Counted from the stretch's first letter, positions 3,751 to 34,811 are shown. The stretch: DNA of 64,000 nt from a virus (IMGVR_UViG_3300014204_000172:1-64000); one strand, 5' to 3'. Numbers and translations: made by a program. Notes: generated by a model not told the origin, from the letters alone.

Positions 3751-3752
3751 AT

Positions 3753-4172: not shown

Positions 4173-4571
4173 TTATACTCCCAATTTCTGAGCTAAAGCT
4201 GTGTAGAATGGTTTAGCATTTTTTCTGATGTCAGAAGTAGCTAAAACAATTAACATATCCGAATCCGTTACAGTTTCTAAAAGTTCTTTGAATTTTGATT
4301 CATCACTAATTTTGCATTGTAAGATTCTAAATATGTTTTGGATCTGGTTTTCTTTTAAAACCAAAAGATGTTCTTCCTTGTTCTGATCTAAAAAGGGAAC
4401 ATTAATCTTTTTTAATTCTTCCTCAGTAAATATTTTTTTTAAAGTTCCATTGTTTAGATATATTTCAATCAACCGGGGAGTCGCTATAGCTTCGGTTACG
4501 ATTGTTCCTACTTCTATAAACTTCCCCCCACTTTTAATTGCTTCACTTTTTAATACTTCATAACTAGGCAT
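4173..4571 (-). CDS. Hypothetical virion-associated protein
   Basis: Tiles between capsid and connector. Confidence 0.6.
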   Translation of the reverse strand: MPSYEVLKSEAIKSGGKFIEVGTIVTEAIATPRLIEIYLNNGTLKKIFTEEELKKINVPFLDQNKEEHLLVLKENQIQNIFRILQCKISDESKFKELLETVTDSDMLIVLATSDIRKNAKPFYTALAQKLGV

Positions 4572-4593
4572 TCTTCGTTACTCCTTGTTATTA

Positions 4594-5610
4594 CTAGCTT
4601 ACACAATCAGCTAAATAGAATCCTAAATCATCGCTGGTTTTTTTCATATCAATGGAGATTAATCCCTCTTGATATGTTGCGTGAGTTCCAAACTCACCGT
4701 CACCCTGAGCTATGCTAATCCAATTATCGCCCATGAAGTTCCATGCGAAACAATAACCGGCAGAAGGTGTATCAATAGACGGTTCATTAGGAGCAAAAAC
4801 AGCCAGCATATCTTTAGGTCCGATGATACGACCCATGACCGCTGTTTGACCTTTTTTCGCTGAATTGTAAACCTGTTTAGCTACCATAATCTTATCTACT
4901 CCGAATAAAGCAGCTAAAGTAGTTTCGTTAACTGTGGCTGGTGAAGTGGTATTGCCGGAAGCGTGTTTGACTCGGTCCAATATGTCCGGGTGATCAATCA
5001 GGCATTCGTAAACATCTGCACCAAAACCAATTTTGTTAACTAAACGTCTACCAGAGATTTCGATTTGCTTCAAGGCGTATCTGATGGTTTTTACCGGATC
5101 GCCTAAAGATTCATCGAATCTCATAAAGGATGTTCCAGGCACAGCAGGACCAATGGCTAAACCATGCATATGGTTAGTCCAGTTGGCTACTCCCCAGAAT
5201 TTCTGCCCAAACGTGTAATCTAAAAAGAGATTGACTTGTTCGGCAATATATCTGGATCGCTGGACTTCCGGCTTAGCTGCCGAGTTCTTGAAATTGACAT
5301 TCTGTAACTGGTCCTGACCGCAAATGACCTGATTGACTTTACAGCTATAGGTATCATCCGATAAACCTAACTGTATAGGATCGGTTCTCCCATACATTGG
5401 CTTTTCGACCATATCTATTCTGCATAAGTCTTCTTGATTCCATTCGTAGTAGTAAGCGCTTTCCACGTCTACTGGAACGATAGGAAACATCTCACGTGCA
5501 ATATAAGGAAGACCAGTAAACCAGTTCATAGCTACGTTGCTTAAATACCGGTTCGGTACATAAGCTTTGCTAATTATCTGCATTTTTAATAATTCTGTTG
5601 TTAATTTCAT
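4594..5610 (-). CDS. Major capsid protein (HK97 fold, gpE-like)
   Basis: YLSNVAM..YIAREMFPIVPV, TLAALFGVDKIMV; 338 aa; position. Confidence 0.88.
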   Translation of the reverse strand: MKLTTELLKMQIISKAYVPNRYLSNVAMNWFTGLPYIAREMFPIVPVDVESAYYYEWNQEDLCRIDMVEKPMYGRTDPIQLGLSDDTYSCKVNQVICGQDQLQNVNFKNSAAKPEVQRSRYIAEQVNLFLDYTFGQKFWGVANWTNHMHGLAIGPAVPGTSFMRFDESLGDPVKTIRYALKQIEISGRRLVNKIGFGADVYECLIDHPDILDRVKHASGNTTSPATVNETTLAALFGVDKIMVAKQVYNSAKKGQTAVMGRIIGPKDMLAVFAPNEPSIDTPSAGYCFAWNFMGDNWISIAQGDGEFGTHATYQEGLISIDMKKTSDDLGFYLADCVS

Positions 5611-5628
5611 TTATTTAATCCTCCTTAT

Positions 5629-6039
5629 TTATACAAAGTGCGTGGTAAAGTTAACTGGTACGCCGATAAAATTGATCCATACAATGTCTCCATCTGCCCC
5701 GGCAGCTTGAAGAACCATAGCTGCTGCGTATTTTCCATTAGTAACCGCTTCAAATTTACCAGTTGCGGATACCTGAACAATAGCACCAACAGCAGCAATC
5801 TCATCAGCGACTGCTAAAACTCTACCGAATACACAAACTGTTACGTTACTACCGGAAGCTCCACCTTTGGTTAAAACTCCAATAGGCAATTCTCCCTGTG
5901 CACAAATAACAACTAGACCAGCATTCATTTTTACGAAATAACCCTCTTTTCCGGTTAAATCACCTGCTCCGCAAGGTAAGCAGAGTAATTGCTGGTTAGA
6001 ATTCCACTGTCCGATTTCGCCTCTTTTTACTAAAGCCAT
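5629..6039 (-). CDS. Capsid decoration/cement protein (DUF2190-like)
   Basis: Small Gly/Ala/Val-rich beta protein (GVL..G..V.V...G) directly upstream of capsid. Confidence 0.7.
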   Translation of the reverse strand: MALVKRGEIGQWNSNQQLLCLPCGAGDLTGKEGYFVKMNAGLVVICAQGELPIGVLTKGGASGSNVTVCVFGRVLAVADEIAAVGAIVQVSATGKFEAVTNGKYAAAMVLQAAGADGDIVWINFIGVPVNFTTHFV

Positions 6040-7185
6040 TTACTTTACCTTTCCTTTCCCTTGATATGCATCAAGTAAATCAGGATTACTGTTACAGGCT
6101 TTTTCAATAGCCTCTGAACGTTTTAAATCAGGATTAGATTTTTGTAGTTCAGTGGCTTTTACTTCTATTTTTGCCCATGCTTCGTCTTTGTCTGTTACTG
6201 CGCCTGAACCAGTATGACCTAATTCATCAAACAGACCTGATTTGTTGATAGCATCAACAGATTTGTCGAGCATGGTTATGGTGCTTTCATAAGCTTTTGG
6301 ATTTGCTTTTTTTAAATCCACTAAATCCTGAGCCAGTTTGTTAATATCTGTATCAGGAATTATCTCATACTTTTTAGCTATAACCGTCTGCTCTGCTAAT
6401 AAGTTTTTAGCTATCAACTCGTCTAGCTGTGCCTGTGATTTTCTCACAGTTGCTTCTAACTCCGTTTCTGAAGATTTTTTTTCTACTGTTGGATAGGCTT
6501 TTTCAAGCTTCTCGTAAGCTGTTAAATCTTCTGGAGTCATTTTTGTTTTGTCCAGCATTTTCTCAACCCCTTTCTTCTTCGTATCTTTTGTACATTCTTT
6601 AGAAACTTTGCAAGATTCGCAATTACCATCGCACTTAACTAATTTATCCTGATTTGTTTCGTCATCCAACTCTTCGTCAGTAGGATTTTCTGTATCAGGA
6701 AACTCGTCAGTAGGTGTAGTTTGCTTGTTTTTTGGATCTTCATTAAGCATGGTTTTTGCTTTAATGATATAGCTATTCAATAAAGCTCTCATGCCATCTG
6801 TTACTTCGATTAATCCTGTATTGGATTTTGCCACCGTATTAATGGCTTCTTCATCGAATAGTAATGTGTCGATCATTTCCGAGAACTCTTCCAGACTTTT
6901 TTGAATTAGCTCCTGTCTGTTGTCCTCTTTGCTTTTGTATAGATCGATGATGTTTTCATGCAAAGCAGTGGCAGCTATTAAATAGTTGTCGTTGAAAACA
7001 TCTTCCGCTTTCTTTTTGCGGACTAACCAATTTAATCCGAACTTCGGAAATTTGAAATTCACGGATACCCCCCTCTTTTTCAACATAATTTTTGCACCCT
7101 GATTTGCTCCTCTATCAACCAAATCAACTTTGGTTATTTCAGGGTCCTTCAAATTTGTTATTTTTAACTTATTAACTTTATTCAT
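6040..7185 (-). CDS. Capsid scaffolding protein
   Basis: N-terminal ITKVDLVDRGANQ motif of XkdF-associated proteins; coiled, charged; many [VIL]xK[SA] repeats. Confidence 0.65.
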   Translation of the reverse strand: MNKVNKLKITNLKDPEITKVDLVDRGANQGAKIMLKKRGVSVNFKFPKFGLNWLVRKKKAEDVFNDNYLIAATALHENIIDLYKSKEDNRQELIQKSLEEFSEMIDTLLFDEEAINTVAKSNTGLIEVTDGMRALLNSYIIKAKTMLNEDPKNKQTTPTDEFPDTENPTDEELDDETNQDKLVKCDGNCESCKVSKECTKDTKKKGVEKMLDKTKMTPEDLTAYEKLEKAYPTVEKKSSETELEATVRKSQAQLDELIAKNLLAEQTVIAKKYEIIPDTDINKLAQDLVDLKKANPKAYESTITMLDKSVDAINKSGLFDELGHTGSGAVTDKDEAWAKIEVKATELQKSNPDLKRSEAIEKACNSNPDLLDAYQGKGKVK

Positions 7186-7188
7186 TTA

Positions 7189-8145
7189 CTACTCGATGTA
7201 GGAATTACCAGCGTGTACGATGGTTCCTGCTCCGGTTTTGGTAAAGGATGCCGCTTTGTCGGTAGCTTCAAACATATTGTTTAATAAGTGGATACTACCT
7301 GTTGCATGGTTAGCGGTAGTCATGACACATTTGGTTAAGACTTCTCCTGTATTGGTTCCATCAATAACCCTGCATCTCTCCATGACTATATCGTGACCAT
7401 CTCCATCCATTTCTAAACCATACTTGCAAGATACGATCAAACAGTTGGAAATGTAAATATCGTCAGCTCCTCTGATGGTTGAATTAACAGCCATGACAGC
7501 CCCGGATTTACAACCTTTGAATACACAGGATGCAAATTCAATATTATTTGCTCCCTGTATATAAGCTCCGAATCCCATATCGTCACCATCTGCTTGTTTG
7601 GATAAATAACAATTAAGGAATTTGTTAAACGATCCGGTGAAATCGGTAGCGGTTGCTGATCCTAGATAGACAGCAGCTTTTGTATCTTTGTAGGTATAAA
7701 GAGATAAACCAACAAAAAGATTTTTACTTCCCGAGATTTTCAATAAATGGTCAGTTGCAGCATCCAAAACTCCTGCCGTTCCTGTACCAATTAAGATAAA
7801 ACCATCGGAAGTTCCTGGACCAATTACCAATAAATCATCAAAATCGATGACTATACCCGAAACTTCGTAGGATAAACCAGCTAAACAATAGATGGTATAT
7901 CCCTTCTTTAATGTAGCAGTGCTTAGTGCTCTTATAAAAGCGATAGCTTCTCTAAAAGTCTTATAAGCAGTGCTAATAGTTGTACCATCCCCTGATGCGG
8001 TTATGTTTGGATTTACAAAAAGAAACTTGCTAGAATCTCTTTGCTGTAATCCATTGATTTCTTGGTCATACCCATCATTGGAATGTATGTCACGATGTCC
8101 TTTATCGTAATAATCTGATCTGTTATCTTTTCTCATTCTCGTCAA
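7189..8145 (-). CDS. Right-handed beta-helix (pectate-lyase-like) protein; likely start ATG 8136
   Basis: FVNP..SGDGTT..AYKTF motif then periodic I.F.NC.I repeats. Confidence 0.65.
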   Translation of the reverse strand: MTRMRKDNRSDYYDKGHRDIHSNDGYDQEINGLQQRDSSKFLFVNPNITASGDGTTISTAYKTFREAIAFIRALSTATLKKGYTIYCLAGLSYEVSGIVIDFDDLLVIGPGTSDGFILIGTGTAGVLDAATDHLLKISGSKNLFVGLSLYTYKDTKAAVYLGSATATDFTGSFNKFLNCYLSKQADGDDMGFGAYIQGANNIEFASCVFKGCKSGAVMAVNSTIRGADDIYISNCLIVSCKYGLEMDGDGHDIVMERCRVIDGTNTGEVLTKCVMTTANHATGSIHLLNNMFEATDKAASFTKTGAGTIVHAGNSYIE

Positions 8146-8161
8146 TCCTCCTTTTAACTAA

Positions 8162-8188
8162 ATTATAGCCTATTCTAACTGATTTCAA
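8162..8188 (-). promoter_or_regulatory. Putative internal sigma70-type promoter upstream of beta-helix/scaffold/capsid genes
   Basis: TTGAAA-N15-TATAAT in a 70-bp intergenic gap, followed by AGGAGG SD; the spacer is short. Confidence 0.45.
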
Positions 8189-8215
8189 TTTTTCTATTTA
8201 TTTCATAATCATTAA

Positions 8216-9604
8216 TTAAGTATGTATATATTTAAAAAATGTCTTTACTATTGATTTTTCAGTTTCTTTTTTTTGTTCATTAACAATAGTTAAATGTATA
8301 TATTCGACGGTTCTTTTACCAGATTTAATCTCGCCCATGAATCCCCGATAATGATAGTTTTCTTTAATTCGATCAACTGCTGTTATTTTATATATATTAC
8401 CCCGACCCAATAAAACTTCTTTTTCTAAATCTCCAAAAGCTCCTATTTCATTGGTAATTATTCCAGCTTTAGTTCCTTTGGGAGCATCAATAACAAATAA
8501 TCGTTCTCCCTTATCCAAAAATTGAAAAGCTTTGTCTTTACTCAACGTGGTTGATGTATAGCCTAACTCAGTAAAAGTTTGTCCGATAGGATTCGCAGAA
8601 CTTAAAACTTTTTCTGCATCCGGGTTATAAGCAGCTCTGTAAAGCTTCTGATTTTCATATAAGGTAGAATCTTCCTGCAATCTTGATTTTTCTAAAGCTG
8701 TATCAATCGATTCGATTAATTTTTTATTTTTAGAATCAACTTTACCTTTTCTTAATTGTTCGTTAATTGATTTATAACTCTCGGATGTATAGCTATTTAA
8801 AGCATTTACTTCTTTTGTCGATAGGCGTTTAATCCAAGTTAATGGATGATAAGCAGTCAAAGATTTATCATTGCTACTACTCGTTTCTTTTGTTGATGTT
8901 TTTTCGTTAGTTGTATTGGATGAACTATTCGAACCTTCTGTAGAGCAAAACTGTCCTCCGTTAGATTGCCCTGCTTCTTCGTGACATTCATTGAATTTAA
9001 ACAATGAACCAAAAGTCTTTCCTATTTTTCTTTTAGCTACTTTATATAAAGTTTCATCTACGTTTGTTTCTTCTCTGGTAGCCATACCCTCAATGGAAAA
9101 ATCTTTTAATTCGCCATTCTTGATTCTATTCCAAATTGATTCATCTGTTATTTGGAATCCTCCCCACCATCCAATAGGAATTAAACCTTGCGGTATATTC
9201 ATGGCTATCTGTTTTTCTATAGTCCAGCACATGGATTCAATACATTTGCCGATTATCTTTTTGTTTGACTCATGCATGACTCCTGAATCTCGATACTTTA
9301 AAACATAGGTATAAGCCATTTTTTCTAGTTCTGATTCATCTATAGCATCTTGCTGGTGGTCAACAAGCTGTTTTAATACCCATTTTCCATTTTCTTGTTC
9401 CCAGTCTGCACTAACTAAAAACCATCCAAATACCTGTTTTTTATCTTCATAAGCTTTACTGATGGTAAATATTGATTTACTAACTGGTTTATCTTTTTTA
9501 TCTTTATCATTAGTTGTTTTTGGATTAATTCTCTTTAATTCTTTACCTCTTAACCATTGTCTATTTTCTATATCCATGTCTAAAGGTATTAATATTTTTG
9601 TCAT
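8216..9604 (-). CDS. XkdF-like prohead serine protease fused to a C-terminal VIP2-like ADP-ribosyltransferase
   Basis: N-half: KKQVFGW..VDHQQD..MHE..GWW.G..IKNGELKDFSIEG. C-half: LNSYT..YKSINEQLR, LYR, GYTSTT, EKEVLL (R-S-E). Confidence 0.85.
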   Translation of the reverse strand: MTKILIPLDMDIENRQWLRGKELKRINPKTTNDKDKKDKPVSKSIFTISKAYEDKKQVFGWFLVSADWEQENGKWVLKQLVDHQQDAIDESELEKMAYTYVLKYRDSGVMHESNKKIIGKCIESMCWTIEKQIAMNIPQGLIPIGWWGGFQITDESIWNRIKNGELKDFSIEGMATREETNVDETLYKVAKRKIGKTFGSLFKFNECHEEAGQSNGGQFCSTEGSNSSSNTTNEKTSTKETSSSNDKSLTAYHPLTWIKRLSTKEVNALNSYTSESYKSINEQLRKGKVDSKNKKLIESIDTALEKSRLQEDSTLYENQKLYRAAYNPDAEKVLSSANPIGQTFTELGYTSTTLSKDKAFQFLDKGERLFVIDAPKGTKAGIITNEIGAFGDLEKEVLLGRGNIYKITAVDRIKENYHYRGFMGEIKSGKRTVEYIHLTIVNEQKKETEKSIVKTFFKYIHT

Positions 9605-12004
9605 TTAAGATAATTCCCTCTTTAATTGGACTTCATCTTTACTTATTTTTAATGTATTATTTTTGCTTCCTACAATATATTCGTATTCTTCATCACCACC
9701 AAATAAGAAATCAGAAGTTCTTAAATAAGGCGTTGTTTCATGGTTAAGTAATATATCTTCCAAAGGTATTTCTTTAATGATTACAATTCCCTTCTTATTC
9801 GCGAATCTTTCTGCAACCCCAAGATCGCTAGTCCATGAAGAAACTGGATAGGTAGCTATTTCTATCTCATTTTCTTTTTTTAATAAATCTTTAATCTTAT
9901 TGGCATATTCACCTTGGATCCCACGATATAATTTAATTTTACCGTCAATTGCTCTGTCTTTTAAAATACGTTGCGTTTCCTGTACTTGTCCTAAAAAGCT
10001 ATTAATTGTTTCTTGGGAATAAAACTGGACTCTTTTCATATTCATATTAATATCGTACATCTTTTCATACCATTCTTTTTCTATTAATTCTTGCTTACAT
10101 CTATCAATAATAGTTTTTTCCCAGTTAGCCAATTCTTTTGCATGCCCTTCTTTATTGACTAAATCTTCTACTTGATTAATTTCCTCTAATAATGTTTTTT
10201 TTCTATCTTCCCATCTTGTCTGCATTTTAATATCAGCAGGACTTATTTCTCCTTTGTAGTAAGCTATTGCCATGGTTCTTAATGGATTTGGATCGCTAGG
10301 CATTGGTCCTTTATAATAAGCCATCATTTGTGCTAAGGAACCAGTTTCTTCTTCATTGGGAGCAGCCGATCTAAAACTACCTACTTCATATTTACTCTCA
10401 CTCAAATAGGAATACATATCATTAATTAATTGTTGCACTTCCGGGACTTCTTCTATAGTTCTTCCTATCCATTCATCTTTTCCAGACATAATCGTATTTT
10501 CTTTTAATTTATTTCCTTCAAATTCTGTACCAGTAAATATTGATAATGCATCTTTACCTTCTTTAATGGGAACTATTTCGGTAGATAAACCTCGACCTTC
10601 AACGGCTAATATTATTTTTTGATTGTATTCTTTTCTGTAATCTTCAAATCTTTCATTCTCCCTATCTATATGTCGTTTATAATAATCAATATTGAATGGT
10701 GCTTCTTTTTTTTCTTGATCTGTTCCATTCTTTAGTAATTCTTCCTGCTTTCTTATTTCTTCATTTGCATATTTAATTTGATTATCACGCCAATCCTTTT
10801 TGGATGTATAATCCCATGATTTTTCAAAGGGAAACAATTCTAATACTTTATTTCGACCCATCATGATTAATTGTTTTCCTTCTGATGTATGAGTTGTTTT
10901 TTTGGAATTATCGGATGTTTCTTTATTTGATGAGCCACTATTACTAGAATCTCCACTACAGAATTGACCACCATTACTTTGTCCTGCTTCTTCGTGGCAG
11001 GTGTTGAATTTGGATACATTTTCATTAGGCTGTAGGATTACTTTATAAATTTTACCTTCTGTTTCATCTATTTGATTAATATCTTTAATTGGTTTTCCTT
11101 TAATTTCTTTATCCATGGAAGTGTAATAGTCTTTTATATCATATTCTTGTATTTCCTTTAATTTAAATTCCTGACCACCTTTTATTAATATCTCTGAAAA
11201 AGAATCCTTACCAAAACTTGTTATAGGTATACTTTTCGTTACTCCTTGAGTTTCAAAAACTATTCTTACTTCGTTCTTTTTATCCGTATAACTTTCAGTA
11301 AATTCTTTAGCTTTTCCCCAATCAGTAGTCCAAGAAGATAAGCCATTCTGCCCTACTGGTTTATCGTTTAAAAGGCTTAAAATTAAATTCTTTCCATCAT
11401 CCTCTTCTAAATAAATTCCTCTAAATATTGGTATGTCCTGTTGAAAGATTACTCCTTTTTCAAATAGGCTATTTATAATTTCATCTTCTCTTTTTACTGT
11501 TTCGTATATTTCTTTGCTAGCCATGCTTACTGTTTCTTTTCCGTTATAAGTTGTTTTGTATGTATAATCTTTTGCTTCTATTGTTTTTTTATATAAATCA
11601 TAATTTCCATTGACTTGTTCATAAACTCTAATAGCTGAACAAAAATTGTAATCAGCCCAATCATTCATGGTCTTTGTTATTTCTTTCCATTGTTTATCTG
11701 TATATTTTTCTCCATGCGTTTCTAAAGCTTTTCTAAATTCATTTCTTTCTACATCATATTCTTTGCTATTGTTAAATTGGGCTTTAATATTTTTTGATGG
11801 TACATTCCGTCTAGGTAGACCATATTCAATTAATTTAGGAGATTTATCGTTTTTTAAATTTCCATTACTGCTATCTGAATCATCTGAACAGAATTTTCCG
11901 TCTTCTGGACTATGACATTCATTGAATTTAAAAATGAATAAATCATTTAAAGATTTTTTAAATGTTCTCGGTTTTTTTAAATATCTATCAAATGTTTTAA
12001 TCAT
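9605..12004 (-). CDS. Multidomain (polyvalent-type) protein with two ADP-ribosyltransferase-like domains
   Basis: Domain 1 IFRG/LSSWTT/FSEILI; domain 2 LYRG/VSSWTS/EEYEYIV; two KFNxCH..GxFCS leaders. Confidence 0.7.
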   Translation of the reverse strand: MIKTFDRYLKKPRTFKKSLNDLFIFKFNECHSPEDGKFCSDDSDSSNGNLKNDKSPKLIEYGLPRRNVPSKNIKAQFNNSKEYDVERNEFRKALETHGEKYTDKQWKEITKTMNDWADYNFCSAIRVYEQVNGNYDLYKKTIEAKDYTYKTTYNGKETVSMASKEIYETVKREDEIINSLFEKGVIFQQDIPIFRGIYLEEDDGKNLILSLLNDKPVGQNGLSSWTTDWGKAKEFTESYTDKKNEVRIVFETQGVTKSIPITSFGKDSFSEILIKGGQEFKLKEIQEYDIKDYYTSMDKEIKGKPIKDINQIDETEGKIYKVILQPNENVSKFNTCHEEAGQSNGGQFCSGDSSNSGSSNKETSDNSKKTTHTSEGKQLIMMGRNKVLELFPFEKSWDYTSKKDWRDNQIKYANEEIRKQEELLKNGTDQEKKEAPFNIDYYKRHIDRENERFEDYRKEYNQKIILAVEGRGLSTEIVPIKEGKDALSIFTGTEFEGNKLKENTIMSGKDEWIGRTIEEVPEVQQLINDMYSYLSESKYEVGSFRSAAPNEEETGSLAQMMAYYKGPMPSDPNPLRTMAIAYYKGEISPADIKMQTRWEDRKKTLLEEINQVEDLVNKEGHAKELANWEKTIIDRCKQELIEKEWYEKMYDINMNMKRVQFYSQETINSFLGQVQETQRILKDRAIDGKIKLYRGIQGEYANKIKDLLKKENEIEIATYPVSSWTSDLGVAERFANKKGIVIIKEIPLEDILLNHETTPYLRTSDFLFGGDEEYEYIVGSKNNTLKISKDEVQLKRELS

Positions 12005-14692: not shown

Positions 14693-16225
14693 TTACCCAC
14701 CTTTCCAATATGAATTCTTTTCTATGGCTGTAGGCATCTCTTCATCACTCTTTTCTGGTTTCATGCAATATATTATACCTAGGCTCATAGCATCCACAAT
14801 ATCTTTTAATATCATTTTAGGGAAACCTAATAATTGATTTTTAAAATCTTCTACCCATGGTTGATGTAAAGAAGGATCAGGTAAAAGAATATTGCCGGAT
14901 AACCAATAACCAGTAGTAGCCCTAGCTCTTTCCTCTTTGCTTCCCTTAGGTTTAACTAAAATAATCCCCGGAATTGTTTTATGTAAGGTATCTGAAACGG
15001 ATTGAGCAGCAGCAGCATCTTCTACAATCTTTTTTCTGACTTCAATATACTTGTCGTGAATACTCCTGAATTCATTACAAATATCGGTGAATGCCATTTT
15101 ACGATGAACCAAGTCAATGATATATACCATCATTCCATCCTGAGCTGCAATAATACAAGCACATTCCGCCGTATTTTCTCCCTTTTTAAATGGCATATCC
15201 CAGAAAGAGAACCATTCAGCAGATTCAGGAACAGCATCGAAATAATGGGTAAACATTTCCTGTTTGAATATGATACCTTCAGCCGGTGTCGGATTCTGTT
15301 GGAATTGAGCTGAAAAGTATTGAGGACCCATGTTGACCCACATCTTGTCTAATGTCTTTTGGCTTAATCGAATAGGATCCAATAAATCATCTTTTTCTCT
15401 TATCTTATACGTCTTACTTATAGGAAAATAGATGGTTTGTCTTTCCTCAGCTTTAGCAGGTAAGATTAATTTATCCCATCCTAACTCATTGATAAAATGG
15501 TTTGCAGCATCCGCCTCATGTAAGCGTTGCATAATACATATCATGTTTCCGGTTTCCTGATCGTTTAATCGTGTTGCCAAAGTGTTTTTAAAAAATGTTA
15601 TAACATTCTCTCTGACTGTTTCTGAAAATGCTTCATCCGGTTTCTGTGGATCATCAATAATAATACAATCTCCACCTTCTCCTGTTAACATACCACCAAT
15701 GGATGTAGCAAACATAAATCCTGAATCTAAGTTTTCAAACATTTCTTTCTGGTTTGTATCATGGCTCAGTATAACTTTCCAGTAGTTCTGGTACCATTTG
15801 GAATTAATTAACTTTCTAGCGATAACATTATGTTTGGTTGATAGTCTATAGCTATAAGAAACTTTGATAAATCGTTTCCATGGTTTAGTAGTCCAAACCC
15901 ATGAAGGATAAGCAACAGCTACCGATAACGATTTAGTGGATCGAGGCGGTACATTAATAACTAAATTTTGTATCTGTCCTCGTTCAATGGCTGTTAAGTA
16001 TTCACAGATAGCATCTAAATGCCAGTTCCATATAAAGCTTCTTTTCGATTCGTAATTACCCCATGATGCCTTTAGAAATTCAGCTAAGTTTCTTTCGTAA
16101 ACTGCTTTTTCTAAACAATAATCATGAAGTTTTGGATTTTTTGGCTTTTTCGTTAATTCGTTGGTAAGTAAGTAATTCGTCATCGGTGAGGTTTGAGAAA
16201 TCATAGACCTCCTCTGAATCTTCAT
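14693..16225 (-). CDS. terL: Terminase large subunit (exact start uncertain: 16225, 16204 or 16183)
   Basis: WNWHLDAIC, NVPPRSTKS (Walker A), IIIDDP (Walker B), QQNPTP, nuclease WD..K and KDIVDAMS. Confidence 0.93.
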   Translation of the reverse strand: MKIQRRSMISQTSPMTNYLLTNELTKKPKNPKLHDYCLEKAVYERNLAEFLKASWGNYESKRSFIWNWHLDAICEYLTAIERGQIQNLVINVPPRSTKSLSVAVAYPSWVWTTKPWKRFIKVSYSYRLSTKHNVIARKLINSKWYQNYWKVILSHDTNQKEMFENLDSGFMFATSIGGMLTGEGGDCIIIDDPQKPDEAFSETVRENVITFFKNTLATRLNDQETGNMICIMQRLHEADAANHFINELGWDKLILPAKAEERQTIYFPISKTYKIREKDDLLDPIRLSQKTLDKMWVNMGPQYFSAQFQQNPTPAEGIIFKQEMFTHYFDAVPESAEWFSFWDMPFKKGENTAECACIIAAQDGMMVYIIDLVHRKMAFTDICNEFRSIHDKYIEVRKKIVEDAAAAQSVSDTLHKTIPGIILVKPKGSKEERARATTGYWLSGNILLPDPSLHQPWVEDFKNQLLGFPKMILKDIVDAMSLGIIYCMKPEKSDEEMPTAIEKNSYWKGG

Positions 16226-16697
16226 TAAGCTTTTGTATGTTTGTAACGTCCTGAGTCAATATGGTCTGTTTTGATTTTTCCATCCATTTGTCCGGCGCTC
16301 TGTTTGCTAAAAGCATTTTAATAGCAAATGCAGAAGGTGGCATCTTTTTTTTATGTACCACTTTATTCATGATTGTTTGTTTCATCTCAACAACTACACC
16401 GTTTTGATCTACTTTGATTGGTACTATTTTGTAACTAATGTCTTCCTCTTCATATTCATAACCGTTAGCTAGTTTATATAGGGAATCTTCTGTGGTTTTT
16501 ACCTTGTATCCAATAGATTTAGCCCTGCCCTTAGATAAGGCATCTTTTAATTCCTGTTTGTCAGGATCTTTTAGCCATAAATGCCATGTATTATGACCAA
16601 TATTCAAATGTGCTCTTATTTCCTTATCCGTTTTTTCTTCTTCCGCTAATTGCTCTATTAGTGGTAATTTAGATTTAACGAATTCCCATTTTGCCAT
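16122..16697 (-). CDS. terS: Terminase small subunit
   Basis: N-terminal HTH, EDSLYKLANGYEYEE, C-terminal DFSNLTDDEL; precedes terL. Confidence 0.8.
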   Translation of the reverse strand: MAKWEFVKSKLPLIEQLAEEEKTDKEIRAHLNIGHNTWHLWLKDPDKQELKDALSKGRAKSIGYKVKTTEDSLYKLANGYEYEEEDISYKIVPIKVDQNGVVVEMKQTIMNKVVHKKKMPPSAFAIKMLLANRAPDKWMEKSKQTILTQDVTNIQKLNEDSEEVYDFSNLTDDELLTYQRINEKAKKSKTS

Positions 16698-16745: not shown

Positions 16746-17453
16746 CTATTTTACCCAATGCTGACTACTTAAAAATAACTTATTGGTGTAATTAGTAACT
16801 TTACCATTCTTTCTAGTTAATGTAGCTATATTGTATTCTTCGTTAGCAATACCTTTCTTTAATCCATAATAACTTTCTTTTATCCATGAAGTAGAATCTA
16901 CGGAACTAAAATTGTTTTTAGTCATAATAGCTAAAGAAGTCATAGCTAATCCATGAATCTTTACATTCTTCTTGTTAGCCATATTGACAAAATAGGGAGC
17001 ATCTTCTTTTTTAGTTCTAGCTATAGCTACATAGGGATAATGTTTAATCATAAATTCAAAGTATGGTAAACCCCGGCATGGATGCCAGACAACAATAGGC
17101 GGTCTTCCTATTCTCTTGGTCATATAATCTCGCCATGATTCCACTTGGGTTAATCCTACCAAATTCTCAATGTCAAATTCGATATATTCATCAATGAACG
17201 ATTCGTGTCTAATAATGAAATCTATATATCGTTCTATATAGTCATGGTAATTCATTCTTTTTTTTTGGCTTCTCTTTTGGTAAGTAAATGCTCCCGAATC
17301 TAAAATAAAGAATTCACATACTTTGCTTATATCTGGAATAACCTTTTCCAGTTTTTCGGATTGAGCGAATGTCGATAACCAATATTTACATTTGCTATTA
17401 ATTAATACCGAATGATGGATCATTTCTTCTCCGCCAGCTAAACATAGTTTCAT
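16746..17453 (-). CDS. dpdA: tRNA-guanine-transglycosylase-like DNA base-exchange enzyme (phage DpdA-like)
   Basis: MKLCLAG, FILDSGAF, EFDI, WH, IHGLA, VDSTSW (TGT barrel motifs); inside que operon. Confidence 0.7.
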   Translation of the reverse strand: MKLCLAGGEEMIHHSVLINSKCKYWLSTFAQSEKLEKVIPDISKVCEFFILDSGAFTYQKRSQKKRMNYHDYIERYIDFIIRHESFIDEYIEFDIENLVGLTQVESWRDYMTKRIGRPPIVVWHPCRGLPYFEFMIKHYPYVAIARTKKEDAPYFVNMANKKNVKIHGLAMTSLAIMTKNNFSSVDSTSWIKESYYGLKKGIANEEYNIATLTRKNGKVTNYTNKLFLSSQHWVK

Positions 17454-17478
17454 TTAATTATTAACCATCCAATTTAAT

Positions 17479-18042
17479 TTATAAATTCTTAGTCGTAACT
17501 TTAATTGATTTATCTTTCATGGCTACTAATACCATATCCAATTCTTCTTTGTCTTTGCATTGAACCAATATGTCAAATTTATTGGTAGTATTAGCCATTT
17601 CTGCATCTTCCAATTCTGCGTTTTCTATTTCTGTGGTAAATATGACTATTTCTCTATCCGAAAATCCAGTTAATAGTAAATCATCTTTATCGATTGATAT
17701 TAAAATAGTTTTCAATTTGTCTATATCCCAGTATCCCTCTATTCTATTTAAAGCTATATTGAGTGCTTTTTCTTTGCTAATCGTTAAATTCTCAACTAAT
17801 ATGCATGGGATTTTAGTATCTGGTTTTTCTATATATATTTCCTTTAAAACTGATAATCTTTGATTTCCACCAATAACTATATTGTCTATGTTAATTACCA
17901 AAGGTTCCACTAAATCAAAATTAAGCAAGCTATCTTTCAATTGTTTGCGAGTATCAACAGTCAATACTCTAGGATTATTCTCAAATGGGATTAATTCGCT
18001 CAACAATCTCTCAGTAAATTTAGGTTCTTTGTTTGTATTCAT
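17479..18042 (-). CDS. ParB/Srx-like N-terminal domain protein
   Basis: LIPFENNPR, LVEPLVIN, IGGNQRL, EKALNIALNRIEG. Confidence 0.85.
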   Translation of the reverse strand: MNTNKEPKFTERLLSELIPFENNPRVLTVDTRKQLKDSLLNFDLVEPLVINIDNIVIGGNQRLSVLKEIYIEKPDTKIPCILVENLTISKEKALNIALNRIEGYWDIDKLKTILISIDKDDLLLTGFSDREIVIFTTEIENAELEDAEMANTTNKFDILVQCKDKEELDMVLVAMKDKSIKVTTKNL

Positions 18043-18557
18043 TTATAGCTAATCCCCTTTTCTGATAAATAATCCATCACTTCTTTTTTCTGTTTTTCAT
18101 TGATACAATGGATAACCAAATCAAAGCTGAAATTCTCCATTACGTTTGGTAAATTATCGGTAGTTGAATTATTCATAAAGATTGTTAATTCTTGGTCTGA
18201 AAATCCAGTTAGCGTTAAATCTAATCTATCGATAGTCAATATCATGTCTTTTAATTTTGAAACATCCCATACTCCCTCAATCCTGTTTAATGCTATATTT
18301 AAGGCTCTTTCTTTTGAAGATGTTAAGTAGTCAATATAAATGCAATCTAATGAATAATCTAATCCATATAGCTCAATTAAAACTGTAAATCGTTGGTTGC
18401 CACCCAATACTTCATTTTTTTTGTTAATTACTAATGGTTCAACAATTCCAAATTCTTCAATACTTGCTTTTAATTTGTCAAACATAAATTGCGGAAACAC
18501 TCTTGGATTGTTTTCAAAACTCTTTAACTCTTTTAACTGCCTTTTTACATATTTCAT
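18039..18557 (-). CDS. ParB/Srx-like protein (tandem paralogue)
   Basis: FENNPR, FGIVEPLVIN, LGGNQRF, ERALNIALNRIEG. Confidence 0.85.
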   Translation of the reverse strand: MKYVKRQLKELKSFENNPRVFPQFMFDKLKASIEEFGIVEPLVINKKNEVLGGNQRFTVLIELYGLDYSLDCIYIDYLTSSKERALNIALNRIEGVWDVSKLKDMILTIDRLDLTLTGFSDQELTIFMNNSTTDNLPNVMENFSFDLVIHCINEKQKKEVMDYLSEKGISYK

Positions 18558-18577
18558 GTATGCCTCTTTTTTTTAAA

Positions 18578-18877
18578 TTAAATCCTACATCTATTAGCTT
18601 GTTCAGCTAATTCTTTTTTTGAATAAACAATAGCATTGATTTTTTTATTAATGGCATATCCCTCAAGTTCCATGTCATTTAAAACTAGCAATAAAGTATT
18701 ACCATCGATAATGTCATAAAATGTATAATTTCCTTCTTTGCTTTCTACGACTGAAATAGTGAAGAATTGTCCTTTTTTCTGTATTTCTTCTTTAAGGAAT
18801 TTATACATTTTAGGATCAATAACTCTTGTTCCATCTCTTCTGACTAATGACCTATCAATTAAACATTGGTAACTCAT
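18578..18877 (-). CDS. Minimal ParB/Srx-like protein
   Basis: LKEEIQKKG..I.V..IIDGN pattern; lacks the usual HR residues. Confidence 0.55.
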   Translation of the reverse strand: MSYQCLIDRSLVRRDGTRVIDPKMYKFLKEEIQKKGQFFTISVVESKEGNYTFYDIIDGNTLLLVLNDMELEGYAINKKINAIVYSKKELAEQANRCRI

Positions 18878-18880
18878 GGG

Positions 18881-19621
18881 TTATTTAATTATTCCTAGTA
18901 AATTTAATGTTTCTTCAATTCTTTCTTTGTAATAGTGGCTGTAATCATTCTTCCTTAAAGCTTCTTTATAATTTTCGATTAATAATTTACCCTCAGAAGA
19001 TTCTAAAGGATCTTTCGTATATACTTCATCAATCCCATTAGCTTTCATAGCTATATATCGTTTGAAACATAACGAACATTCCCCGCATCTTTTTAAGAAA
19101 TCATGGTAGCAACTGGTAGTTTTCCCTAATTCTTCTTTGGTTATTCCATTTGATAAAGCCCACTTGATTGCTTCTGTTTTTGATAAATTCATAAAAGGAG
19201 ATTCAACAATTGTTAATTCTCCTAATGCCTGAGTTAAAGCTACTGTTGACTTATTAAAAAAGGATCCGTTTTTATCATACATATGTATATGGTTTTCATA
19301 TTTCATTCCTAAAATCCATACTCTCTCACCTAATGAACCGGCGATTGATGCAAATATCATATTTCTACCCGGGATAATGTAATTCGATATATCCGGTATA
19401 TTATTAAATTCTTCACTAATTAGATCTACTTTTAAGTAATGGATTAAAAAACCAAAGCTATCTAACGCTTCTTTTTCCTTTAAAAAGTATGGCTGGTTAA
19501 TATTGAAATTAATACAAAGGATGTCTTCTTTGTTATATTTTTTTTCAATTAGTGCATAATGGTAAGCAATAAAAGAATCTAAACCACCGGAAACGCAAAT
19601 AACTAATTTTTTTCTATTCAT
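18881..19621 (-). CDS. queC: 7-cyano-7-deazaguanine synthase
   Basis: SGGLDS PP-loop, IPGRN, TTSCY..RCGECSLC..R. Confidence 0.9.
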   Translation of the reverse strand: MNRKKLVICVSGGLDSFIAYHYALIEKKYNKEDILCINFNINQPYFLKEKEALDSFGFLIHYLKVDLISEEFNNIPDISNYIIPGRNMIFASIAGSLGERVWILGMKYENHIHMYDKNGSFFNKSTVALTQALGELTIVESPFMNLSKTEAIKWALSNGITKEELGKTTSCYHDFLKRCGECSLCFKRYIAMKANGIDEVYTKDPLESSEGKLLIENYKEALRKNDYSHYYKERIEETLNLLGIIK

Positions 19622-19920
19622 AATATATTCTCAATGTCTTGGATATTTAAAGCCTTATCATCAATATAACAATCCGCTTTCAACTTTTCTAAAACCAATA
19701 CATGGTATTTTATACCTGCACTTTTTAAATCTCTGACCGTATTAAATCTATCCTCTTCCAATCTTGATGAGTAAATAATGATGTAGTTATTTTCATACAA
19801 CTGGTTGATCGCATTAATAATCTTCAAATTTGGAATTGACGACTTACCAGTTTTTAAATCAAAAGCCTCGAATATGGTTTGGTCAATATCTACTGCAATA
19901 ATTTTATTAATCGTTCGCAT
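19618..19920 (-). CDS. Minimal HAD-superfamily phosphatase
   Basis: DIDQT (DxDxT), YSSR, K..D.YIDDK. Confidence 0.8.
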   Translation of the reverse strand: MRTINKIIAVDIDQTIFEAFDLKTGKSSIPNLKIINAINQLYENNYIIIYSSRLEEDRFNTVRDLKSAGIKYHVLVLEKLKADCYIDDKALNIQDIENIL

Positions 19921-20795
19921 ACTTGTTTGCTGTCAAATAATGAATAGTCGACTTCATAATTTGGCATCTCCTTTATAAATTTAAAAATAGATTCTTGACT
20001 GAATGGTTCATATCCTCCCGATAAATAATCTCTCCATACCGGGTAACCATTAGTAATGTTTGGATATAACAAATAGCATCCACAAGCTTGTGCTTCCACT
20101 AACGATAAACAAATCGTATCTCCTAATGAACAAGTAAAGAAAAATTTAGCATTACCTAATTCTTGGTAAAATTCCTCCTGCGTGTTGTAATGAAAGATAA
20201 AGCCTAATTCCTCGAATCTCGTTAAATCATAAAAATTAACCCATTCTCGACTATCATTAGCCGATATGGAAAAAACAATCTTGTATTTATTCAATAATGG
20301 TTGCAATAAATAAGTTGCCAAATAGAATTGTTTATCCGGGCTAATCCGACCACCAATAACAATTTTTTTCTCTTTATGCAATTTGTTGTAACAATTCCAT
20401 AAAATTTCTAGCTGTAAAGGGAATCCGATATATTCGGCTCTGTTTGTTTTATCTTTCAATAATAATTGATGGCTCATGCTTAATGTAGTAACCAAATCTA
20501 CCTGTTTTAATTGTTCTCTTTCATAAGTGCCTACATTATAAGCATATGGGTTATAAGAAGTTCCATGACTATGCATGATTAATTTCGCTTCAATTCCTAG
20601 TTCTTTTACTACTTCCAAATCTTCATAATTCATGATAAATAGCCAATCTTTTGAAGTAAAACTTTTCTTATATAGACAATCAATGCTAATTGTTTTATAA
20701 GGATAGTTAAGCATTTTGAATCCATCCATCAAATTATCCTCAAATTGTCTAGACCATGGGTTATGATTTTTAGAATCTAGCAACAAATTAAGCAC
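19890..20795 (-). CDS. GT-B fold (GT4-like) glycosyltransferase
   Basis: MHSHG, GGRISPDK, SLGDTICLSLVEAQACGC (D/E-x7-E). Confidence 0.85.
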   Translation of the reverse strand: MLNLLLDSKNHNPWSRQFEDNLMDGFKMLNYPYKTISIDCLYKKSFTSKDWLFIMNYEDLEVVKELGIEAKLIMHSHGTSYNPYAYNVGTYEREQLKQVDLVTTLSMSHQLLLKDKTNRAEYIGFPLQLEILWNCYNKLHKEKKIVIGGRISPDKQFYLATYLLQPLLNKYKIVFSISANDSREWVNFYDLTRFEELGFIFHYNTQEEFYQELGNAKFFFTCSLGDTICLSLVEAQACGCYLLYPNITNGYPVWRDYLSGGYEPFSQESIFKFIKEMPNYEVDYSLFDSKQVCERLIKLLQ

Positions 20796-21358
20796 TATTC
20801 CACCAGTTTCATAAATTCTTGTCTTGTTTTTTCATTCATAAAATTACCACGTAAAGATGAAGTTATCATTTCACCCTCTTTTTTAACTCCTCTATAAATC
20901 TGGCAAGTATGTCTGGCTTTTAAAATGACTCCACATCCTTGAGGCTGTAATTTATCTTGTAATTGCTGGCATATTTTTTCTGTCATATATTCCTGTGTGT
21001 TCAATCCTTTGGAATGATATTCAACTAATCTTGCCATCTTGCTTAAACCAATAATCGATTTATCCGGGATATATGCAATAATAGCTGTACCCATGAATGG
21101 CATCAAGTGATGTTCGCAAAGACTCATAAAGGATACATTCTTTTCAATAATCATCTGGGAGTATCCTTCTGAATCAAAAGTAGTCATATTAAATTCAATC
21201 GGAGTCAATAATTCTTTCAAGGTTTCGTAAACTCTTCTAGGTGTTTCTTCTAAAGATGGTTTTGCTGATGGGTCATACCCAAAATAGCTCATAATCTGAG
21301 ATATTTTTAATTGGATGTCTTGCGTTACATGGATGTTGTTCATTTTCCTTCTCTCCAT
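20795..21358 (-). CDS. folE: GTP cyclohydrolase I
   Basis: ETPRRV, SLCEHHLMPF, GLSKMAR, HTC..RG, MITS. Confidence 0.95.
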   Translation of the reverse strand: MERRKMNNIHVTQDIQLKISQIMSYFGYDPSAKPSLEETPRRVYETLKELLTPIEFNMTTFDSEGYSQMIIEKNVSFMSLCEHHLMPFMGTAIIAYIPDKSIIGLSKMARLVEYHSKGLNTQEYMTEKICQQLQDKLQPQGCGVILKARHTCQIYRGVKKEGEMITSSLRGNFMNEKTRQEFMKLVE

Positions 21359-21534
21359 TTAATATCGATGTTATAATACTTCTTTGCTACATCATTAACC
21401 ATTTTATCTATCTCTATTGTTGATTTATCATAGGAAACAAAAAAATGTCCTTTGGCTATTAAAGTTCCATCAACAATTAATTCCCAATTTATAATTTTTT
21501 TATCAATTCTAGGAATAACTATTACTTTATTCAT
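21340..21534 (-). CDS. Hypothetical protein inside que operon
   Basis: Tiles between queE and folE. Confidence 0.5.
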   Translation of the reverse strand: MNKVIVIPRIDKKIINWELIVDGTLIAKGHFFVSYDKSTIEIDKMVNDVAKKYYNIDIKWREGK

Positions 21535-21539
21535 TTCTA

Positions 21540-22148
21540 TTATTTTACTCCTATGATTTTATGAATCTGCAAGCTTAAATGAGCTTCTCCATTTCTATAA
21601 TTAGTCGAAACTAATTCAATAGTTCTTTTTAAATTTAATTCATAATTGCTATCCATTAACGGCTGGAGAGATACCATTTTTAGAGTATTAATGTATTTTT
21701 CTATGACTCGTATTGTTGTTCCTTCGGTAATTAAAAGCTTATATTCATCGATATAAGGTTCTAATTCTTCATTTATTTCTACCATTTTTGGTGAACAGGT
21801 AATCCATAACAAATCTTTGAATCTTTCTAAATTAAATTTTGGCTTCAATGATCCATTGGTTTCAATGATGATTTTTCTGCTATTCAATTGAAGATTTTCT
21901 AATAATTCATTATCGACTTGTAGTAATGGTTCTCCGCCAGTTAAAACATATAATTGTCTCATTCTTCTTTTATATGATATTAATCCAGCTAATGAAGTTT
22001 TTCTTTCATCGATTAAATTTTGAGGAGTATCACAAAAAATACAAGAAAGATTGCATCCATAAAATCTTATAAAAGTTGCAAATTCACCTGAGTATTTACC
22101 TTCTCCTTGAATCGATTCAAATGTTTCTTGTATTTTATAAGTTTTCAT
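21540..22148 (-). CDS. queE: 7-carboxy-7-deazaguanine synthase (radical SAM)
   Basis: ESIQGEG, GCNLSCIFCDT, TGGEPLLQ, IETNG, SPK, LSLQIHK. Confidence 0.95.
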   Translation of the reverse strand: MKTYKIQETFESIQGEGKYSGEFATFIRFYGCNLSCIFCDTPQNLIDERKTSLAGLISYKRRMRQLYVLTGGEPLLQVDNELLENLQLNSRKIIIETNGSLKPKFNLERFKDLLWITCSPKMVEINEELEPYIDEYKLLITEGTTIRVIEKYINTLKMVSLQPLMDSNYELNLKRTIELVSTNYRNGEAHLSLQIHKIIGVK

Positions 22149-22503
22149 TATTTTTTAACTCCGACTCGTTATAAATAATTGATGAATCTTCTGATTCATA
22201 AATTTCTATTTGACTTATAGGTAGTTTTAGTTCGTCTTTAACTCGATCAAAAAGGTATTTAGCGATGTTTTCTGCTGTAGGATTTCTTAAAAAGTCATTC
22301 CAGTCTCTATGGTCAGGTATCATTTCTTTTAGATCTCTTTTTAAATTTGAAAAATCAACAGTAAATCCCACGTTGTTTAATTTCTCAAAACTTAAACTAA
22401 CAATAATTTTCCAAGTGTGTCCATGGATATTAGCGCATTTTCCATGATAAAAAGGTAAATGATGTGCGTTGTCGACTTTGATTGCAACCTTAATTACATA
22501 CAT
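22135..22503 (-). CDS. queD: 6-carboxy-5,6,7,8-tetrahydropterin synthase
   Basis: AHHL..CANIHGHTW, DF..LK, PTAENIA, ES. Confidence 0.93.
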   Translation of the reverse strand: MYVIKVAIKVDNAHHLPFYHGKCANIHGHTWKIIVSLSFEKLNNVGFTVDFSNLKRDLKEMIPDHRDWNDFLRNPTAENIAKYLFDRVKDELKLPISQIEIYESEDSSIIYNESELKNNENL

Positions 22504-34563: not shown

Positions 34564-34811
34564 TGATACAACTCTTTACTATTTTTTACTAACCTCTCAA
34601 TTAAACTCAATGCTTCTTCTCCTTTTGTTTTAAAAATAAAATCATGTAATGTTTCATTCTCGGGAATAGTTAAAAATTCATCTAACTTAAAAAGGTCAAA
34701 TTCTTCTAAATCGGAGCATTCCATTAATACTGTATCTTTGAAAAAGTTGATGTCTTTTCCAAATAACTTTAAAAATTTATCTCTGGTATCTTTACTCCAT
34801 AATTTAGGCAT
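34560..34811 (-). CDS. Hypothetical protein
   Basis: Tiles on - strand; FDLFKLDEFL pattern. Confidence 0.55.
   Translation of the reverse strand: MPKLWSKDTRDKFLKLFGKDINFFKDTVLMECSDLEEFDLFKLDEFLTIPENETLHDFIFKTKGEEALSLIERLVKNSKELYQ

Follow-up and report, generated by a model that had tools for sequence, protein, structure and literature searches.

The genome of an uncultured phage represented by IMGVR_UViG_3300014204_000172:1-64000 (the window, that is, the whole stretch of 64,000 nucleotides analysed here) contains, at 16746-22503, a cluster of genes for 7-deazaguanine DNA modification in which genes for a glycosyltransferase (GT) and a small phosphatase of the HAD family are embedded. FolE, QueD and QueE convert GTP to 7-carboxy-7-deazaguanine (CDG), and enzymes of the DpdA family exchange guanine in DNA for a deazaguanine. 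The question raised by this locus is whether the GT and the phosphatase take part in such a pathway and, if so, what base is produced. We consider it likely that the GT, the HAD and a divergent QueC-like enzyme form a unit belonging to the deazaguanine pathway, and we lean, with less confidence, towards a product in phage DNA that is a predicted sugar-bearing 7-deazaguanine, made by a co-transcribed module and inserted by DpdA.

Linkage of the glycosyltransferase, phosphatase and QueC-like genes

The strongest evidence for a place of the GT and HAD in a deazaguanine module is the linkage of their genes in other phages. Eleven independent contexts of the GT family were read, from 32 or more homologues, and 10 of these have readable downstream DNA; a degenerate DNA pattern gave three further GT loci among 103 mostly spurious matches. 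HAD/QueC-like sequence lies directly downstream of the GT gene in 9 of the 10 readable contexts. In the window and in L001 (loci of relatives carry L numbers) the GT is followed by a free-standing HAD and then by the QueC-like gene, and in L004, L006, L057, L098/L114, L118 and L124 it is followed by a single protein in which the HAD and the QueC-like enzyme are fused. The contig of L005 ends within the GT gene, and the only exception is L003, a 2.3-kb contig on which the GT is flanked by an AAA_28 protein on one side and by another GT4-like gene on the other.

Fusion of the HAD to the QueC-like protein is the condition found in most relatives, and at loci with the fusion the GT is immediately upstream in every case (7/7). 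The fusion family comprises about 30 protein clusters of 327-368 amino acids (39 homologues), and four of the contigs that bear it are equal in size to contigs that bear the GT (19,007; 8,736; 33,819; 57,441).

The trio is also present on large contigs, namely L098/G001 (138 kb), L118/G002 (134 kb, near-identical to G001) and L057 (154 kb). In G001 and G002, folE and queE are located about 60 kb away from it. Just upstream of the GT there is a homologue of UDP-glucose/GDP-mannose dehydrogenases in L098 (5231-6487) and in L057 (15-1253); the position of a nucleotide-sugar-modifying enzyme beside the GT would make little sense if the GT did not transfer a sugar in the pathway. The adjacency of GT and HAD/QueC is kept in phages of 43 to 154 kb with differing genome architecture. 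The original prediction, made from the window alone, had left to neighbourhood analysis whether GT homologues elsewhere are linked to dpd clusters, and such linkage is indeed found, both in the 9 contexts described above and in the DpdA-like genes that flank the cluster in L001, L004, L006 and L124.

The glycosyltransferase

On its modelled fold, the product of 20795-19890 is a GT4-type GT-B glycosyltransferase. The AlphaFold2 (AF2) model, built on 15 homologues, has a mean predicted local distance difference test score (pLDDT) of 88.6 and a predicted template modelling score (pTM) of 0.87, and consists of the two Rossmann domains typical of the GT-B fold. Foldseek matched it to GT4 enzymes with E values of about 1e-9 and a probability of 1.0, and VIA-align gave Z scores of 20-22.6 over 276-292 residues to retaining GT4 enzymes; the structural matches include TarM, BshA, tetrahydrobiopterin glucosyltransferase, SenB, sucrose-phosphate synthase (SPS), PimA and MshA. 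Its neighbours in the ESM Atlas are Glycos_transf_1/GT4 clusters, many of them viral. At the level of sequence the Pfam model Glycos_transf_1 scored 17.8 bits, below the gathering score of 26.4, and a profile of the family found no match among PDB sequences at E<=1, so that only fold comparison was successful.

The C-terminal domain contains a GGRISPDKQ donor loop and D226-x7-E234, a variant of the E-x7-E motif of GT4 enzymes with Asp replacing the first Glu. The earlier reading of a D-x7-E variant was borne out, since, among 43 homologues, D226 and E234 hardly vary. The same is true of K155, and R150 represents the consensus at its position in the GRISPDKQ loop. A word-indexed search placed 15 clusters in the family, and an exhaustive search gave 32 cluster representatives at E<1e-30. 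All were found in viral or metagenomic DNA; a pattern-based scan that covered 185,579 prokaryote genomes detected none, and neither did tblastn against 50,697 isolate phage records. Members of the family are acidic (median isoelectric point, pI, of 5.7), compared with a pI of 9.2 for the DpdA-like protein of the window. A function of the GT in glycosylating pterins was considered and set aside, as the match to tetrahydrobiopterin glucosyltransferase is no better than those to other GT4 enzymes and the gene is linked to the QueC-like gene and not to folE.

The HAD phosphatase

The HAD was not called by Pfam alone. Since Pfam calls neither the GT nor the HAD, evidence from structure or profiles was required for both. 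The HAD carries motifs I-IV of its family (DxD, S/T, K, DD). In an alignment with six relatives, including an open reading frame (ORF) of Stenotrophomonas Menderavirus phages, residues D11, D13, R53, D87 and D88 are invariant in all seven sequences. A Ser or Thr precedes R53 in 6 of the 7, the Menderavirus ORF having Gly at this position and Thr one position earlier, and the motif III region contains a Lys.

When the profile of this alignment was compared with the PDB, the matches were 9iqw (2.8e-12), 1xpj (1.3e-9) and 2obb (BT0820; 1.5e-5). The first of these, AfhF of phage HY126, is a D-arabinose-1,5-bisphosphate phosphatase and the closest solved relative of the HAD; Foldseek superimposed the two with a root-mean-square deviation of 2.3 over 97 columns. 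The nearest characterised relative is therefore an enzyme that already works in phage DNA glycosylation. The cut-off of the NCBIfam equivalog for BT0820 was not reached (23 vs 165).

A divergent QueC-like enzyme

The QueC-like protein passed the Pfam QueC model (65 bits, 8e-18), and its score of 60.6 bits with the NCBIfam QueC equivalog TIGR00364 is below the cut-off of 150. Nine HAD-associated sequences were aligned with 19 other phage QueC sequences from one scan. In most of the 19, YGQRH or YGSKH and DHAxYPDCRPEF are found together with an SxLTD..VP.GHY insert. The sequences associated with a HAD contain instead F(N/D)IG(H/Q)PY and ENHxxMYDKNxxFF, are missing the SxLTD..VP.GHY insert and extend about 50 residues further at the C terminus. 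Of the 19, L129, L130 and L132 share several of these features, a C-terminal extension among them, and are counted with the clade. Among isolates, close relatives were limited to Menderavirus, whose QueC-like proteins share 31% identity with the window protein (1e-29). Judged by these motifs, the enzyme appears to belong to a divergent clade and to be no canonical QueC.

The AF2 model of the fused HAD-QueC protein (pLDDT 87.8, pTM 0.74) has a flexible linker at residues 78-85, and the QueC-like domain matches canonical QueC (2pg3, 3bl5) and the QueC relatives QatC and Cap9 about equally well, so that the fold does not settle its chemistry. From its sequence, the divergent enzyme might not make the nitrile of 7-cyano-7-deazaguanine (preQ0). 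The original prediction had assumed that FolE, QueD, QueE and QueC together make preQ0; the first three enzymes are present as claimed, and it is the last step that is in doubt.

Phosphatase and QueC-like genes without the glycosyltransferase

In the cultured Menderavirus phages (160 kb; Mendera, Moby, Ps15 and Bhz51 are examples) the gene order is folE, a hypothetical gene, inositol-phosphate synthase, HAD, QueC-like, DpdA-like and QueE. Stenotrophomonas phage Bhz51 (L123, OR797040.1) carries this cluster at 3366-8895, where the HAD is annotated as a polynucleotide kinase. The 403-amino-acid gene of the Menderavirus cluster matches the DpdA profile weakly (hhalign E 3e-4) and has been annotated as a tRNA-guanine transglycosylase (TGT) in phage Ps15 (PMC9025141). 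No published analysis of DNA modification in Menderavirus phages was found.

Two further arrangements are found in L133 and L130. L133 contains two radical-SAM genes, a HAD, the QueC-like gene, one further gene and FolE, adjoining a polymerase in which uracil-DNA glycosylase (UDG) is fused to PolA (9401-11800); polymerases of this UDG-PolA type have reportedly been linked of late to phages with T-modified genomes. In the 124-kb phage L130 a HAD of NT5C type (5'-deoxynucleotidase, 5468-6010), adjoining dUTPase and NAD-salvage genes, lies between folE and the QueC-like gene of the clade. In L129 (IMGVR_UViG_3300021440_000017, high GC) a distant GT4-like gene and an S-adenosylmethionine (SAM) methyltransferase gene directly precede the QueC-like gene (4385-6771); these are the enzyme types that tailor preQ0 in huimycin clusters, here in a phage.

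The HAD and the GT are separable add-ons to the QueC-like clade. A phosphatase is found beside the clade repeatedly, and this points to a reaction that inherently involves a phosphorylated co-substrate or product; the GT is an extra layer in one sub-lineage.

The DpdA-like transglycosylase

With the DpdA-like protein, tblastn gave matches in 183 phage records, some of them annotated as queuine tRNA-ribosyltransferase or DpdA-like, and Pfam TGT gave no match. The motifs LDSG(G/A)F and VDSTSW are invariant among the homologues of the window, L001, L004 and L006. No DpdA of the phrog_887 type was found on the large contigs with the trio; the 264-amino-acid gene that follows HAD-QueC there was tried as a candidate and rejected (hhalign E 0.14).

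Two side observations concern these relatives. On the 80-kb contig of L124, paralogous DpdA-like genes (3158-3976 and 7033-7836) flank the GT-HAD/QueC unit. In L004, a 66-kb relative, a gene for a queuosine-precursor transporter of the Vut_1/YhhQ type (6859-7470) is located upstream of the cluster, and Fusobacterium phage phiFN37 has one beside DpdA.

Predicted pathway

Based on pathway knowledge and family assignments, FolE, QueD and QueE would convert GTP to CDG. The QueC-like PP-loop ATPase would then activate the C7 carboxyl group of CDG by adenylation and couple it to a partner instead of, or besides, ammonia. The chemistry that we prefer is an amide, possibly an ester, of CDG with a phosphorylated amino-alcohol or sugar; the HAD would strip the phosphate from the co-substrate or product of the QueC-like enzyme, freeing a hydroxyl to which the retaining GT4 enzyme would transfer a sugar, with a host nucleotide-sugar as its source. 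For the large relatives, a uronic acid produced by the neighbouring dehydrogenase is the probable donor. In a variant of the scheme, the base of preQ0 or 7-amido-7-deazaguanine (ADG) would be glycosylated directly, in the manner of HuiG. The basic DpdA-like transglycosylase would swap guanine in DNA for the base in its final form, or in a precursor form to be completed after insertion. Tailoring might occur on the free base, as the acidic GT suggests, or on DNA after insertion, as the capless HAD suggests. In this way the phage would gain protection from restriction enzymes and from host glycosylases whose targets are plain deazaguanines. The specific carboxyl-linked chemistry, in which the C7 carboxyl of CDG is joined to a phosphorylated amino-alcohol or sugar, dephosphorylated and capped with a sugar, is a tentative proposal and more doubtful than the sugar-bearing product itself.

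The original prediction of a further, possibly glycosylated, base has gained from the conserved adjacency of the genes, the fusion of the HAD, the nucleotide-sugar dehydrogenase of the large phages and the lack of a ThyA-like gene in the genome.

Alternative explanations

Several points weigh against a sugar-bearing deazaguanine made by this unit. In L002 the QueC-like gene follows the GT directly, with no HAD between; on the 2.3-kb contig of L003 the GT is present and no deazaguanine gene is visible; and GT and HAD can occur apart, in that Menderavirus, L133 and L130 have a HAD and a QueC-like gene with no member of the GT family nearby. Several loci come from one sample (3300045988) and all contexts are metagenomic, so that common descent may account for part of the conserved gene order. 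The acidity of the GT speaks against its binding to DNA directly but is compatible with a free base as substrate. No enzyme that forms an amine-phosphate or activates a sugar was found encoded by the phage, and host metabolites must therefore be assumed. Finally, the HAD could be a pyrophosphatase or nucleotidase that helps the QueC-like enzyme.

Some of these points would be expected if this were an ordinary phage with dPreQ0 or dADG (the deoxynucleosides of preQ0 and ADG) in its DNA, and the GT and HAD were passengers with an unrelated job, such as modification of host surface glycans or metabolites. We regard this as unlikely, although it survives better than the other alternatives. All remaining parts of the cluster fit the known preQ0/DpdA layout, the GT is missing from further phages with the same QueC-like clade (Menderavirus, L133 and L130), and the homologue in L003 lies outside any visible deazaguanine context. 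Passengers would not, however, be expected to remain adjacent in phages of 43 to 154 kb and after separation from folE and queE, nor would one of them be expected to be physically fused to the QueC-like enzyme. Unlike typical surface-glycan GTs, moreover, this family was not found in the 185,579 prokaryote genomes (pattern scan) or the 50,697 isolate phages.

A variant of our preferred reading assigns the HAD a helper role, as pyrophosphatase or nucleotidase for adenylation by the QueC-like enzyme, and has the GT glycosylate DNA-borne ADG or preQ0. HADs of differing subtype do occur beside the clade where there is no GT (minimal in Menderavirus and L133, NT5C in L130), and HADs without a cap often have large or exposed substrates. 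Against this, the closest solved homologue of the HAD is a sugar-bisphosphate phosphatase, and the charge of the acidic GT gives no indication of a DNA-binding surface; we hold the variant to be improbable.

Slightly more improbable still is that the glycosylated deazapurine is a free metabolite, similar to huimycin or dapiramicin, that acts on the host or on competitors and is not found in DNA. Glycosylation of a free preQ0-derived base by an enzyme of the HuiG type is known (PMC7439116; bioRxiv 10.64898/2026.04.15.718813), the GT family is acidic and has the small size usual for GT4 enzymes that act on small molecules, such as SenB and tetrahydrobiopterin glucosyltransferase, and L129 combines GT4-like, SAM methyltransferase and QueC-like genes as huimycin clusters do. 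But in a genome-mining study secondary-metabolite clusters were found to be without DpdA (bioRxiv 10.64898/2026.04.15.718813), whereas a DpdA-like gene ends the operon in the window and such genes also adjoin the cluster in L001, L004, L006 and L124.

Glycosylation of another base, a hydroxylated or hydroxymethylated pyrimidine as in phages of the T4 and RB69 types, can be all but dismissed: an AfhF-like HAD together with GT4-like transferases is the hallmark of arabinosyl-5-hydroxycytosine phages (PMC13326640), but the 73-kb genome gave no match to a ThyA-type gene (PF00303; hydroxylase or hydroxymethylase), SIS isomerase or NTP_transferase, with the limit that at an estimated completeness of 84% gene absences are not absolute, and no DNA polymerase was found among the ORFs scanned. 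In a genome without a ThyA-like gene no hydroxylated pyrimidine acceptor would be made, which also disfavours the second sugar-modified base that had been suggested as an alternative at the outset.

The locus and neighbouring genes

The phage genome is 73 kb in size with a GC content of about 30%, and every gene from 13 kb to 26 kb is on the minus strand. The order on this strand is queD-queE-orf64-folE-GT-HAD-queC-orf99-ParB-ParB-dpdA-terS (Table 1). Genes of the cluster overlap or are separated by gaps of <=48 nt, and a search of the coding strand for a terminator-like site found none; a co-transcribed module is the best explanation for 16746-22503.

Table 1. Genes of the deazaguanine cluster and the adjoining terminase gene (aa, amino acids)
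Feature	Coordinates	Strand	Evidence
queD (6-carboxytetrahydropterin synthase, 122 aa)	22135..22503	-	Pfam PTPS 1.1e-25; TIGR03367 4e-22
queE (radical-SAM CDG synthase, 202 aa)	21540..22148	-	Pfam Radical_SAM 9.7e-9; TIGR04508 queE_Cx14CxxC 1.5e-24
orf64 (64 aa, small basic protein)	21340..21534	-	no Pfam, PHROGs or NCBIfam match
folE (GTP cyclohydrolase I, 187 aa)	20795..21358	-	Pfam GTP_cyclohydroI 6.5e-52
GT4-type GT-B glycosyltransferase, by modelled fold (301 aa)	19890..20795	-	AF2 model, Foldseek, VIA, family alignments
minimal capless HAD phosphatase (100 aa)	19618..19920	-	phrog_1238 3.8e-17; catalytic motifs; profile matches to PDB
divergent QueC-like PP-loop ATPase (246 aa)	18881..19621	-	Pfam QueC 8e-18, residues 76-194 only
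orf99 (99 aa)	18578..18877	-	no Pfam, PHROG or NCBIfam match
ParB-like protein 1 (172 aa)	18039..18557	-	phrog_620 6e-34
ParB-like protein 2 (187 aa)	17479..18042	-	phrog_620 1e-32
DpdA-like DNA guanine transglycosylase (235 aa, pI 9.2)	16746..17453	-	phrog_887 6e-34
terS small terminase	16122..16697	-	phrog_309 5.7e-20; start of packaging and head module

The row of genes given in the original prediction was largely recovered, with ORFs at the coordinates given and families assigned to them, with its contiguous and overlapping arrangement and with its position directly upstream of terS. Its QueC appears not to be canonical, as discussed above, and of its three ParB genes two were confirmed, orf99 showing neither a family match nor BLAST similarity to the ParB genes. 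It had also seen no QueF or ArcS, and a genome-wide comparison agrees: neither QueF nor a TGT/ArcS-type gene (Pfam) was found in the 73-kb genome, the sole QueF match being the expected T-fold cross-match inside folE.

The slot of orf64 is variable, being occupied by a 76-amino-acid YgjV-like ORF in L001 and by a 133-amino-acid ORF in L004. Downstream of terS there is terL, followed by a Mu-type portal. The genome also encodes a DnaC-like loader, a replication initiator, Erf and an anti-restriction protein. The latter, a 275-amino-acid protein at 34804-35631 of the window that matches the PHROG for anti-restriction proteins (phrog_7245, 1.8e-56), would be a second anti-restriction device beside DNA modification. 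A blastn search of 50,697 deposited phage records with this region as query found no relative at the DNA level.

ParB-like genes are found beside the DpdA-like gene in the window (17479-18557, beside 16746-17453), and ParB-like genes are likewise located next to DpdA in L001 (12762-13445), L004 (12824-13507) and L006 (2999-3679). In phiFN37 (L007 8519-9804) the ParB-like and DpdA genes overlap. In bacteria DpdA pairs with the ParB-like ATPase DpdB (PMC10164549), and the adjacency in phages recalls this pairing, by gene position. Surveys of phage deazaguanine systems (PMC6884629, PMC10516641) do not mention ParB-type genes. A packaging-related role is an alternative reading of ParB-like genes that are close to a terminase.

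Comparison with known systems

The phage 7-deazaguanine systems described to date (PMC6884629, PMC10516641) share with this cluster the core of FolE, QueD, QueE, QueC and DpdA, the logic of base exchange and the expected evasion of restriction. Their known tailoring enzymes are QueF, ArcS, Gat-QueC, QueF-L, DpdL, DpdM and DpdN (Hutinet 2019 PMC6884629; Cui 2023 PMC10516641); no glycosyltransferase or HAD phosphatase is mentioned for them, whereas the cluster in the window has both, together with a divergent QueC.

A minimal HAD of the AfhF type and GT4-like transferases are shared with the arabinosyl-5-hydroxycytosine pathway, in which AfhF-type HADs of RB69-, DLP3- and HY126-type phages prepare UDP-arabinose for arabinosylation of 5-hydroxycytosine (PMC13326640). 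In that pathway, however, a ThyA homologue provides the acceptor, a hydroxylated cytosine, and the HAD works with an isomerase and a kinase/pyrophosphorylase. The isomerase, kinase/pyrophosphorylase and ThyA-like partners are absent from the phage in the window, where the HAD is tied to a QueC-like enzyme.

By enzyme type, and with no homology claimed, the four activities of nucleotide-sugar dehydrogenase, GT4, ATP-dependent amidation and HAD are combined in the glucuronamide branch of the Campylobacter jejuni HS:2 capsule. There, the ATP-dependent amidoligase Cj1438C uses serinol-phosphate or ethanolamine-phosphate and the HAD Cj1435 then removes the phosphate, with the GT4 enzyme Cj1432N and the UDP-glucose dehydrogenase Cj1441 in the same branch (PMC11800397). 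The two systems differ in the ligase (ATP-grasp-like compared with PP-loop QueC-like) and in its substrate (a polysaccharide sugar acid compared with CDG). A ligase role for a QueC homologue has a parallel in RoyL of the roseomycin A pathway, which reportedly ligates amino acids, or amines other than ammonia, to adenylated CDG (bioRxiv 10.64898/2026.04.15.718813). RoyL, Cap9 and QatC are alike in having the QueC fold; QatC and Cap9 are among the top structural neighbours of the window enzyme, and RoyL is likened to it by description.

For the GT, the closest parallel in function might be HuiG of huimycin synthesis, which N-glycosylates a base derived from preQ0 (PMC7439116). HuiG resembles it as a GT4-type enzyme acting on a 7-deazaguanine derivative, but belongs to actinomycete secondary metabolism, and no sequence relationship was detected. 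In eukaryotic tRNA, the GT4-type enzyme QTMAN/GTDC1 mannosylates the cyclopentenediol of queuosine. This likewise places a sugar on a 7-deazaguanine in a nucleic acid, although in tRNA, neither in DNA nor in a phage, and again no sequence relationship was detected.

Full-text literature searches brought up no description of phage DNA that contains a glycosylated or sugar-linked deazaguanine, in agreement with the original prediction. To our knowledge, the sugar decorations of DNA known in phages sit on pyrimidines, and the eight deazaguanine derivatives that we know of in phage DNA carry only small groups. The type of DNA modification and the enzyme folds are familiar, and the novelty lies in the unit of GT4, HAD and divergent QueC-like enzyme and in its predicted product.

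Biological significance

If this reading is true, DNA of any kind would for the first time be known to contain a glycosylated purine analogue, and the pairing of a QueC-like ligase with a HAD would be a new tailoring route that is present, without the GT, in cultured Menderavirus phages. These phages provide an experimental handle on the HAD and its QueC-like partner, and at 6 kb the cluster in the window is of a size suited to expression in a heterologous host. Site-selective labelling of DNA might also gain new enzymes, namely a compact GT4 enzyme of 300 amino acids, a minimal phosphatase and a CDG ligase.

Phage T4 adds glucose to hydroxymethylcytosine and thereby escapes enzymes that target this base. 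Host glycosylases that attack modified guanines are known (bioRxiv 10.1101/2025.10.29.685425). A sugar-bearing deazaguanine would extend the arms-race logic of T4 to the guanine position, and would add a new chemical class to the natural bases of DNA.

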